Assembly: GCA_963744245.1 (NCBI GenBank)
Contig: CAVUST010000002.1
Span: 5,891-69,890, forward strand
Direction: 5' to 3'
From: an uncultured Solirubrobacterales bacterium
GTDB taxonomy: Bacteria > Actinomycetota > Thermoleophilia > Solirubrobacterales > Solirubrobacteraceae
DNA: 64,000 nucleotides
The notes beneath the pieces are model-generated. The model had not been told where the DNA came from and ran no database searches. It saw only the letters and a program-made list of their open reading frames with translations. Position numbers and translations under genes: made by a program. Positions 21,131-24,095 of the stretch are shown here, piece by piece. Each line of letters opens with the position of its first letter. The first letter of the stretch is position 1.

Positions 21131-21204
21131 TCGGGGAGACAGGATTTGAACCTGCGACCGCCCGGCCCCCAGCCGGGTGCGCTACCAGACTGCGCCACTC
21201 CCCG
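21131..21204 (-). tRNA. tRNA-Pro(GGG)
   Basis: CGGGGAG/CTCCCCG acceptor stem, CCCGG-CTGGGGG-CCGGG anticodon arm, GGTTCAAATCC T-loop. Confidence 0.95.
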
Positions 21205-21215
21205 TGGCACTGCAA

Positions 21216-21286
21216 AGCGGGCGACGGGAATTGAACCCGCCCTTAAAGCTTGGAAGGCTTTCGTGCAACCACAACACTTCGCCCGC
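21216..21286 (-). tRNA. tRNA-Gly(TCC)
   Basis: GCGGGCG/CGCCCGC acceptor stem, AAAGC-CTTCCAA-GCTTT anticodon arm, GGTTCAATTCC T-loop. Confidence 0.93.
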
Positions 21287-22344: not shown

Positions 22345-22384
22345 AGCCGCGATCATACGAGCGTGACCGGCCCGTCGGTGAGCA

Positions 22385-22577
22385 GGGGTTCCCACCAGAA
22401 GAGATGGTGGGTTGAGGGGATCGGACCGTGGATGGCAGACGCCGCACGCTGGCCGATCGGAGATCGCTGTGGATCTCCGATCGGTAGACGTGCTGGTGGC
22501 ACGGCGAGCATCGGGGGTGGCGTATGACGCCGCGGAACGGCCGCCTCAACCCCGGCAGATATTCTGACGGGGGCCCC
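22385..22577. repeat. Structured dispersed element, copy A (193 bp)
   Basis: High identity to 23822-23982; ends base-pair; several internal hairpins. Confidence 0.85.
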
Positions 22578-23822
22578 AAGCGCCTGCGCTGGATCGCAGC
22601 CGGCCTCGTCGCGCTGCTCGTCGCGCTCGCCCTCGGCGGCTACCTGTACGAGCGTCATCGCACCGGCAGCATCTACCACCCCCACGCCCGCTTCATCCCC
22701 CAGCCCTCCCCCACGCTGCCCGCGCGCGGGCCCGCCCGGTCCGCCTGGCCGTTCTACGGCTACTCCCCTGCACACACCCGCTTCTTCCCCGCGCCCGCGC
22801 GCGTGTTTCCCCCGTTCCGGCGCCTGTGGGTCCGCAACGGCAGCTCGCTGCTCGAGTTCCCCCCCTCGCTCTACGGCGATCACATCTTCCAGCTCGCCGA
22901 CGACGGCGTGCTCAGCGCGATCAACCTCCACACCGGCCACACCTTCTGGCAGCGCCGCATCGGCTCGCTGTCCGCGTCCACGCCCGCGGCGGTCGGTCGT
23001 GTCGTCTATGCGACCGTGCTCGCGCGCGCCGATGGCGTCCGCAAGGGAGAAGTCCTCGCGCTCGCCTACGCCACCGGCAGGATCCTCTGGCGGCGAGCCC
23101 TGCCCAGCCCCAGCGAGTCCTCGCCGCTGCTCGACCACGGCATGCTGTTCTTCGGCTCCCAGGCCGGGACCGTCTATGCGCTGGGCGCCCACAACGGCAA
23201 CGTCATCTGGACCTACCACGCCGCCGGCGCCGTCAAGGCCAGCCCGACGCTGTCAGGCGGGATCCTCTACTTCGGCGACTACTCCGGCCACGTCCAGGCG
23301 CTCGCCGAGCGCACCGGCCGGCGGCTGTGGGACAGCGACTCCGGCGGCGCGCTGCTCGGCAGCGGCACCTTCTACTCGACCGCCGCCGTCATGTACGGGC
23401 GAGTGTTCCTGGGCAACACCGACGGGCGCATCTATGCCTACGACGCCTTCACCGGCCGCCTCGACTGGGCGGTGCAGACGGGCGCCTACGTATACGCCTC
23501 GCCCGCCATCGCCAACGCGCCCGGCCTCGGCCCCACCGTCTACGCTGGCTCCTACAACGGCGCCTTCTACGCCCTGAACGCCCGCTCCGGACACGTCGAG
23601 TGGCGCTTTCACCCCGGCGGGCGCATCTCCGGCTCCGCCACCGTCGTCGGGCGCGTCGTCTACTTCGCCGACCTCGCCAGCCACCGCACCTACGGCCTCG
23701 GCATCTCCACCGGCCGCATCGTCTTTCAGATGCACACCGGCTCCTTCGACCCCGTCATCAGCGACGGGCAGGACCTCTACCTGACGGGCTACACCGGCCT
23801 CTACGGCCTCGCGCCACGCTAG
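22524..23822 (+). CDS. PQQ-binding-like beta-propeller protein (BamB-like) with N-terminal TM anchor
   Basis: Repeated SSP....G.L(F/Y).G...G.VYAL...G...W units. Confidence 0.88.
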   Translation: MTPRNGRLNPGRYSDGGPKRLRWIAAGLVALLVALALGGYLYERHRTGSIYHPHARFIPQPSPTLPARGPARSAWPFYGYSPAHTRFFPAPARVFPPFRRLWVRNGSSLLEFPPSLYGDHIFQLADDGVLSAINLHTGHTFWQRRIGSLSASTPAAVGRVVYATVLARADGVRKGEVLALAYATGRILWRRALPSPSESSPLLDHGMLFFGSQAGTVYALGAHNGNVIWTYHAAGAVKASPTLSGGILYFGDYSGHVQALAERTGRRLWDSDSGGALLGSGTFYSTAAVMYGRVFLGNTDGRIYAYDAFTGRLDWAVQTGAYVYASPAIANAPGLGPTVYAGSYNGAFYALNARSGHVEWRFHPGGRISGSATVVGRVVYFADLASHRTYGLGISTGRIVFQMHTGSFDPVISDGQDLYLTGYTGLYGLAPR

Positions 23823-23982
23823 GGTTCGCGTCCCAATAGATGGCGGGTTGAGGGGGTCGGGCCGTGGATGGCAGACGCCGGACACGAGCGCAGGCGTGCT
23901 GGTGGCACGTCGAGCATCGTGGGTGGCGTCTGACGCCGCGGAACGGCGGCCTCAAGTCCGGCAGATATTTGGACGCGGACCC
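23822..23982. repeat. Structured dispersed element, copy B (161 bp)
   Basis: Homolog of copy A; terminal 17-nt arms pair at 15/17 Watson-Crick positions. Confidence 0.85.
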
Positions 23983-24095
23983 TTGGTCCCGCTCTTCGGC
24001 GCCAGGCATCACCGCGACGGGATGAGCGCCGACTGGATCCGTTCCCCACCGCCCGCACCCTCGCCCCACACGAGCCCGAACCGTGCTCCTCGACC

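Follow-up and report, generated by a model that had tools for sequence, protein, structure and literature searches.

Two copies of a hairpin-forming element, A and B, lie next to a PQQ-propeller gene in a 64,000-nucleotide stretch of DNA (hereafter referred to as the window) from the genome of an uncultured Solirubrobacterales bacterium (assembly GCA_963744245.1, contig CAVUST010000002.1). We found that they belong to a dispersed MITE (miniature inverted-repeat transposable element) family, which is of the IS5/IS427 kind by every tested feature except an identified partner. Its mobilisation by a DDE transposase is very probable. The element is a MITE with a strand-specific structure as well, and these two readings are not alternatives. 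A first-pass annotation of the window, made from the sequence alone, had favoured a structured RNA or a single-stranded DNA (ssDNA) element over a MITE with terminal inverted repeats (TIRs). The one-strand structure stood up in the family alignment (G·T oppositions numbered 537 and A·C oppositions 6), while the preference over a MITE did not, in view of the 3-bp target-site duplication (TSD) and the IS427-like ends. Taken together, we rather favour the reading that a DDE-mobilised MITE carries a hairpin constrained at the RNA level.

22386..22576, plus strand: copy A, long form of the hairpin MITE (191 nt; boundaries from the alignment to 71 copies)
23822..23982, plus strand: copy B, short form of the hairpin MITE (161 nt; boundaries from the alignment to 71 copies)

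The hairpin family and its constrained strand

Copies A and B are in direct orientation, as the first-pass annotation had described, and its positions agree with ours within 1 nt; the blocks that it quoted as common to both copies, together with the two closing stems, were found in them. Their covariance model scores were 101 bits (A) and 167.9 bits (B). The annotation had suggested a genome-wide count of copies, a covariance model and an Rfam search as checks on its proposal. The genome (3.09 Mb in 2 contigs, 68% G+C) proved to contain 18 full copies and 2–3 fragments, which makes this a dispersed family. A covariance model built from 59 clean copies recovered the family in 25 of the 151 genomes of the order. 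These carriers represent 14 of the 55 genera and 4 of the 6 families, and each has 1–18 copies. The elements are 154–209 nt long, and their internal frames are short. The possibility that the core encodes a small protein was rejected, because it is at codon positions 1 and 2 that the sequences vary. Rfam returned only tRNAs from the window at the gathering score, and only chance miRNA-like matches far below threshold at E ≤ 10, giving no match of the element to a known family. We found no paper that links MITEs with Solirubrobacter or describes the hairpin family, and the main text of a MITE census of 183,232 genomes mentions neither Solirubrobacter nor Conexibacter nor Thermoleophilia. The proposal of a mobile family without a known description is thus supported.

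Copy B was predicted to fold from end to end into one hairpin (−109.1 kcal/mol; z = −10.3 relative to dinucleotide shuffles), and its reverse complement folded at just −76.6 kcal/mol. Copy A (−111.6 kcal/mol, z = −6.9) formed a copy-B-like hairpin with one side branch. The family consensus is one long unbranched hairpin of 55 pairs with no branch point, and the designation 'multi-hairpin element' given to it at first has to be dropped. Of the inner stems that had been listed, GGGTTGAGG/CCTCAACCC and GTGC..GCAC exist as segments of this one hairpin and not as separate hairpins, whereas GGCGT-N3-ACGCC is absent from the consensus as a local stem, its bases pairing across the hairpin with GGCAGACGCC.

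The first-pass annotation had reported covariation of the ends, and had named a lack of significant covariation among further copies as grounds for giving up its proposal. With more copies aligned, 33 of the 55 pairs called by RNAalifold showed compensatory double changes; the covariation therefore held, and it spans the rest of the hairpin as well as the ends. Paired cells amounted to 97.8%, compared with 88.6% after partner shuffling, and in 500 shuffles none of five measures came up to that of the actual alignment. In slid controls, in which the 3′ partners were moved by 1–3 columns, pairing was 30–48% and the number of double-change pairs was 9–16.

Of the opposed positions of the hairpin, symmetric internal loops included, 3128 were Watson-Crick, 537 were G·T and 6 were A·C; a further 558 were transversion mismatches, for the most part G·A, A·G or G·G. 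At least 12 columns switch from one Watson-Crick pair to another via G·U and never via A·C, and several G·U positions are fixed in 54–59 of the 59 copies. The plus (G-rich) strand folded better than the other strand in 59/59 close and 19/19 distant copies, with a mean gap of about 27–34 kcal/mol (mean folds of −108 versus −74 kcal/mol in the close copies and −117 versus −90 kcal/mol in the distant ones), and contained 8–10 wobble pairs per fold as compared with about 2 on the other strand. The excess of G·T over A·C indicates that a single-stranded form of one strand is under constraint. It would not arise from a double-stranded inverted repeat, a cruciform or a shared transposase, because those treat G·T and A·C alike. 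Both this asymmetry and the slid controls are free of the assumption that the copies are independent of one another. RNA is the simplest candidate for the constrained single strand and ssDNA is the alternative; we consider the odds that the constraint acts on RNA to be about even. A replication-strand bias was also considered as the cause of the wobble asymmetry and was rejected, the copies not following the replichores in their orientation, which is mixed (5 versus 11, on a weak skew signal).

The perfect 12-bp hairpin that had been noted in copy A is indeed there, and was identified as a nested insertion on the 5′ arm.

22453..22484, plus strand: nested 32-nt perfect palindrome of copy A (CCGATCGGAGATC-GCTGTG-GATCTCCGATCGG), 12-bp stem

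This palindrome is missing from copy B and from most copies of the MITE, and is found also in copy C1:1025706 and in the orthologue of copy B in a metagenome-assembled genome (MAG), L112. Its arms have 19 and 23 further occurrences in the genome (for example at C1:79494, C1:1067833 and C1:1377930). Small perfect palindromes of this CCGATCGG type (CCGATCGGAGATC / GATCTCCGATCGG) form a second repeat family, nested in some MITE copies. Other MITE copies carry a related insert, ACCGATCGTCCGGGATCGG, in the apical loop.

Insertion marks and the candidate transposase

The TIRs of the family look bipartite: a GGGYYC tip and a AATAGATGG box, both conserved, are separated by a variable spacer of 7 nt. 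The left end (GGGYYC..AATAGATGG) is matched by the right end (CAGATATT..GRRCCC), columns 1–21 of the alignment pairing with columns 147–167. A TSD of 3 bp was evident from identical flanks in 22 of the 71 copies; when the right flanks were shuffled 2000 times, such identity was seen in 5.2 copies on average and in 13 at most. As a triplet, the duplication is TNA-like, with T at position 1 in 18/22 and A at position 3 in 22/22, and G often comes next. The statement of the first-pass annotation that no TSD is visible is correct for copies A and B (CAG/CAA and CTA/TTG, respectively) but not for the family.

Comparison with empty orthologous sites, which the annotation had also suggested, took in 81 genomes and yielded two clean filled/empty pairs, both showing the 3-bp duplication. 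One of the 81, G057, is unpublished, and none of our claims depends on it. At C1:249949, the empty site of the relatives reads GCGTT-TCA-GCTCC and the window genome has the element between TTA and TTA. At C1:2045819, three relatives have the empty site AGCT-TCA-GCATGG, and in the window genome the element is flanked by TCA on either side. Rearrangement in the relatives made the junction at C1:1025706 unreadable. All of the 7 loci tested were empty in the five nearest relatives, which means that the copies are young or easily lost.

Two small sequences related to the element were also seen. At L206 (G023:C1), the orthologue of C1:2045819, there is an 11-nt insert, TCA-GCATGGGGTCC-TCA; judging from its sequence, it may be an excision footprint of the MITE, since it ends in the last five bases of the element. 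A solo left MITE end (28/28 nt, differing at one position from a copy in a different genome) is located at C2:298191–298211, with TAA before it, and the unrelated sequence that follows it is upstream of a CoA-ligase-like gene.

The duplication left by the MITE (TNA/TWA, 3 bp) is of the same kind as that of a resident insertion sequence (IS) of ~850 bp. Seven identical copies of this IS are present in the window genome (G000), at C1:400.5–401.4 kb and six more sites (loci L184–L190). Its transposase matches PF01609 (DDE_Tnp_1) and PF13586 (DDE_Tnp_1_2), its ends are GAGCGCCTAACAAAAAG, and its duplications are TTA/TAA in five of the seven copies, with mismatched TTA/TAA in the other two; one genome of the genus (G233) has 40 or more copies of its relatives. 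IS427-like ISs of the genus with TTA/TAA duplications have the ends GAAGCTGTCTCAATACC (1.4 kb), GAAGGTCTTTCAAAATGA (900 bp) and GAGCGCCTAACAAAA (850 bp), which belong to classes that also occur at the ends of sister MITE subfamilies. The MITE subfamily of L218 and the IS of L232/L236, which reside in different genomes, are equal in their first 12 nt (GAAGCTGTCTC) and both have TAA/TTA duplications. A link to the Tourist-type MITEs of eukaryotes, which PIF/Harbinger elements mobilise, with an mPing-like end (GTCACAAT), is one that we presume. The profile of the Harbinger-type DDE transposase, PF13359, had no match in the genome.

Positions of the copies in and between genes

The features of the PQQ-propeller gene and of the flanks of the two copies are as follows.

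22363..22527, plus strand: ancestral GTG start of the PQQ gene, now a 54-codon frame into copy A, with TGA at 22525–22527
22383..22385, plus strand: CAG, left flank of copy A, degenerate TSD with CAA as its partner (2/3 positions match)
22524..23822, plus strand: present PQQ-propeller open reading frame (ORF), 432 aa (ORF list, translation, Pfam PQQ_2 4.6e-60)
22577..22579, plus strand: CAA, right flank of copy A, the other TSD half
23819..23821, plus strand: CTA, left flank of copy B; right flank TTG at 23983–23985; duplication unrecognisable (1/3 positions match)

The two copies had been said to bracket the PQQ gene, which does not apply to copy A: it sits inside the ancestral 5′ coding end, having been inserted at codon 7/8 of the ancestral frame. 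The site is empty in G023, G086, G003, G007 and G071. The PQQ gene of the relatives opens with GTG GCC CGC CCC TCG CTC CCC AAG CGC; in the window, the homologous GTG (22363) and seven codons are followed by copy A. Deletion of copy A and 3 nt restores GTG AGC AAG CGC, in frame with the CTC CCC AAG CGC of the relatives. Because removal of the element and three bases restores the ancestral frame, CAG/CAA is most likely a decayed duplication. The ATG at 22524, within copy A, overlaps the TGA of the old frame (ATGA) and is in frame with the rest of the PQQ gene; a start at this ATG gives an 18-residue replacement N-terminus before the hydrophobic anchor. As far as the reading frames tell, the PQQ gene most likely starts now at the ATG inside copy A, possibly by re-initiation, since the old frame stops on the overlapping ATGA.

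Copy B lies directly after the TA of the PQQ stop codon, its first G completing TAG, with convergent genes on either side. Its site is empty in G023, G086, G003 and G071, and is filled at the same position in the MAG L112, where the flanks are GTA/TTA. At L157 (G058:C37), a ~48-nt internally deleted MITE, of which just the two ends are left, has GAG/GAG flanks and is 3 nt away from where copy A is inserted. It is an independent insertion in the same few bases of the 5′ end of the PQQ gene.

Other copies in the genome split genes just after the start codon or abut stop codons. One copy (L012, C1:1374986–1375146) fills the rpsJ-rplC spacer of the S10 operon, which is 7–9 nt in the relatives; it has its C-rich strand in the mRNA, and 4 nt separate its end from the rplC ATG, for which a Shine-Dalgarno sequence is not obvious. 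By crude GC-frame gene calls, on which all our orientation counts with respect to genes rest and which make them rough, copies within 30 nt after gene stops would have the C-rich strand transcribed in 25 cases and the G-rich strand in 13. Elsewhere in the window, two adjacent tRNA genes (21131–21286, minus strand; Rfam tRNA, 63 and 57 bits) are located ~1.1 kb upstream of copy A.

Readings of the family and its relation to known elements

The reading that we favour, a DDE-mobilised MITE with a hairpin constrained as RNA, would operate as follows. The element, a non-autonomous DNA transposon of ~161 nt, would be moved in trans by an IS427-like DDE transposase of the IS5 family, and would insert at TNA(G) with duplication of 3 bp. 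In a genome of 68% G+C, AT-containing triplets would be tolerated at stop codons, start codons and short spacers, and insertion would take place there; copy B would thus have landed on the PQQ stop codon and copy A in the seventh/eighth codon. The element would then be read as RNA inside neighbouring transcripts, the folded G-rich strand being what selection sees, and the fold may be a compact tolerated insert or an mRNA 3′-end, processing or terminator-like structure.

Several observations weigh against this reading. An IS with GGGTTCGCG..AATAGATGG ends was not found in the window genome, in four copy-rich relatives or at ~60 transposase loci: short-BLAST searches of the genome with the 28-nt termini returned only the solo left end at C2:298191–298211, an IUPAC pattern of the ends gave no pair at IS spacing in five genomes, and the termini had no match at ~60 DDE_Tnp_1 loci. 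Since no IS with matching ends was found, the transposase partner is deduced from what kind of duplication and of ends the element has. One relative with eight copies of the MITE has no PF01609 match, and several copy-bearing relatives have no IS427-like transposase at E ≤ 1e-10. The window copies themselves carry degraded duplications, with two of three (A) and one of three (B) positions matching. The copies are related by descent, so that the shuffle controls overstate the significance of the covariation, and ssDNA hairpins likewise tolerate G·T wobble, so that an RNA is not proven by it. Between co-directional genes, 20 copies are antisense and 11 sense, so that the weaker-folding strand, if any, is favoured in the mRNA; such a mixed orientation sits awkwardly with selection on the plus-strand RNA in host transcripts. 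Finally, neither a sigma-70-like promoter nor a U-tailed terminator was predicted in or around the window copies.

The distribution of conservation along the element bears on what its unit is. Distant subfamilies share the same central ~85 nt, at a mean identity of 74% to copy B (19 copies) and with CGAGCATCGYGGGTGGCG almost invariant, whereas the terminal 22 nt are ~58% identical across subfamilies, which equals the background for 22-mers. The end classes of the distant members include GAGCCTGTCTCAGAACC, GAACCTGTTTCGAAATGAGG, GAAGCTGTCTCGAAACC, GGAAACGTCGATGAATAA and GTGCCTATCCCGG, and nearly all are flanked by TAA/TTA. Derivation of the core from the interiors of ISs was rejected, those of the IS427-like ISs having no similarity to it. 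For two resident copies, orthologues that share both the flanks and the locus-specific variants are present in other MAGs. These orthologous elements are 98.8% and 97.5% identical, and their 400-nt flanks 91.7/93.5% and 91.1/81.0%, respectively; a flank divergence of ~9% predicts ~14 differences in 161 nt, as against the two observed. Relatives at least as close at the orthologue-bearing loci (G023, G003 and G086) have empty sites. Empty sites in equally close relatives possibly reflect repeated precise loss, recurrent insertion or inter-lineage recombination. In two Solirubrobacterales MAGs (L036 and L129), core-only remnants of ~90 nt without recognisable ends occupy an orthologous position. 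On such sequence comparisons, the core may outlast the ends.

It is conceivable, although less likely than the reading that we favour, that the conserved hairpin core, as a structured RNA or ssDNA, is itself the selfish or functional unit. In the course of the order's evolution it would time and again have gained, or co-evolved, different inverted-repeat ends that suit the IS427-like transposase available, the MITE being a mere vehicle for it. The same core stands behind at least eight end classes, nearly all with TAA/TTA duplications; its conservation exceeds that of the ends, which turns the usual MITE pattern round, and it is without similarity to IS interiors. Strand-specific wobble is present in every subfamily, the orthologous resident copies change at a rate several times lower than that of their flanks, and the core-only remnants persist after the ends have eroded. 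On the other hand, no Rfam family matches, there is no conserved single-copy 'source gene' (126 of the 151 genomes have no match), and no promoter is evident. The difference in conservation is just 74% versus 58%, from 19 copies, the orthologue argument consists of two pairs only, and ends that co-diverge slowly with their transposases would mimic the pattern without any capture. Similarly, we regard it as a possibility of the weaker sort that a core of ~85–110 nt persists across the Solirubrobacterales in MITE shells, the ends of which are exchanged or retuned to different IS427-like transposases. If the core were the unit, purifying selection would keep the resident copies, with the folded RNA serving the neighbouring genes or the element.

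An ordinary MITE without any role as RNA is unlikely. Its arms would be kept alike by a shared fit to the transposase and by self-correction of the palindrome (template switching or repair of extruded hairpins). The TSD, the TIRs and the empty sites are all classical, and the orientation relative to transcription is mixed, as this explanation would have it. However, it predicts equal numbers of G·T and A·C, in contrast to the counts given above and to the columns that switch solely via G·U; mismatch repair would erase G·T, yet G·U is fixed at several positions; and the covariation runs through the core, far past a plausible transposase-binding site.

The suggestion of the first-pass annotation that the family may be REP-like, with a linked HUH/RAYT gene to be looked for, can practically be dismissed, and with it a REP/REPIN-like element or an IS200/IS605-derived palindromic element (PATE), moved as ssDNA by a Y1 (HUH) transposase: a one-strand hairpin constraint would suit the recognition of ssDNA, and copies A and B lack a clear duplication, but the Y1_Tnp profile (PF01797) had 0 matches in the window genome while it matched in 6 of 14 control genomes, the ends resemble IS427-like inverted repeats, 161 nt is far above the size of a REP unit, and the 3-nt flanks (TTA, TAA, TCA, ATA, CAA) vary between copies and match within copies, which speaks for a real duplication as opposed to a cleavage site that is fixed. 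PATEs derived from IS200/IS605 make no target duplication and insert 3′ of a fixed tetra- or pentanucleotide. The hairpin family does resemble REP/REPIN sequences in being dispersed extragenic palindromes that can form long hairpins and show compensatory change between the arms, but REP units are 20–40 nt, do not duplicate their target and are tied to the Y1 RAYT, whereas the hairpin family duplicates its target.

Among known systems, IS5-derived (IS427-like) MITEs share with the hairpin family the small size, the lack of coding capacity, TIRs that start with G, the 3-bp TNA/TWA duplication and presence/absence polymorphism between close relatives. The family differs from them in that its interior surpasses the ends in conservation, one strand is constrained and no partner IS was found. 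ISs of the IS427 group are ~830–865 bp long and have direct repeats of 2–4 bp (PMC3281130); those found here, of 850–900 bp with TTA/TAA duplications, match this range of size and duplication.

The hairpin family also resembles ERIC, an imperfect palindrome of ~130–160 nt that occurs in short spacers and at the 3′ ends of genes and is conserved across genera. ERIC duplicates TA, whereas the hairpin family duplicates TNA (3 bp); moreover, it is found in another phylum and has no resemblance in sequence by eye. ERIC is co-transcribed with its neighbours and has orientation-dependent effects on the mRNA, including the unmasking of an RNase E site in the 3′ TIR (PMC10969869). These RNA effects were demonstrated for ERIC, whereas an RNA role of the hairpin family is predicted. 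The Correia elements (CREE/NEMIS) of Neisseria are likewise MITEs of 100–200 nt that lie at the boundaries of genes; in transcripts, the inverted repeats pair with each other and RNase III cleaves them, and the elements can supply neighbouring genes with expression signals (PMC10969869). Pairing in the Correia elements is mainly between the TIRs, whereas the hairpin family pairs over its whole length, and they have promoters and an IHF site, whereas our search in and around the window copies turned up nothing promoter-like.

MITEs are usually seen as short-lived deletion derivatives of ISs, the ends being the conserved part. The hairpin family inverts this pattern: its interior is better conserved than its ends, and the fold is kept on one strand, wobble pairs being the only intermediates of change. 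Its dozens of independent compensatory changes provide a clean natural data set on the question of whether selection can act on a bacterial transposon at the level of RNA, or of a single strand. A further question to which the family is relevant is whether copies, once inserted, turn into useful operon parts, such as 3′ ends, spacers like that of rpsJ-rplC, or new start codons. For annotation in the Solirubrobacterales, the covariance model can be applied, odd gene starts and stops find an explanation, and the presence or absence of a copy can serve as a marker between close lineages, in a family that occurs across an order-level group of uncultured soil Actinomycetota.

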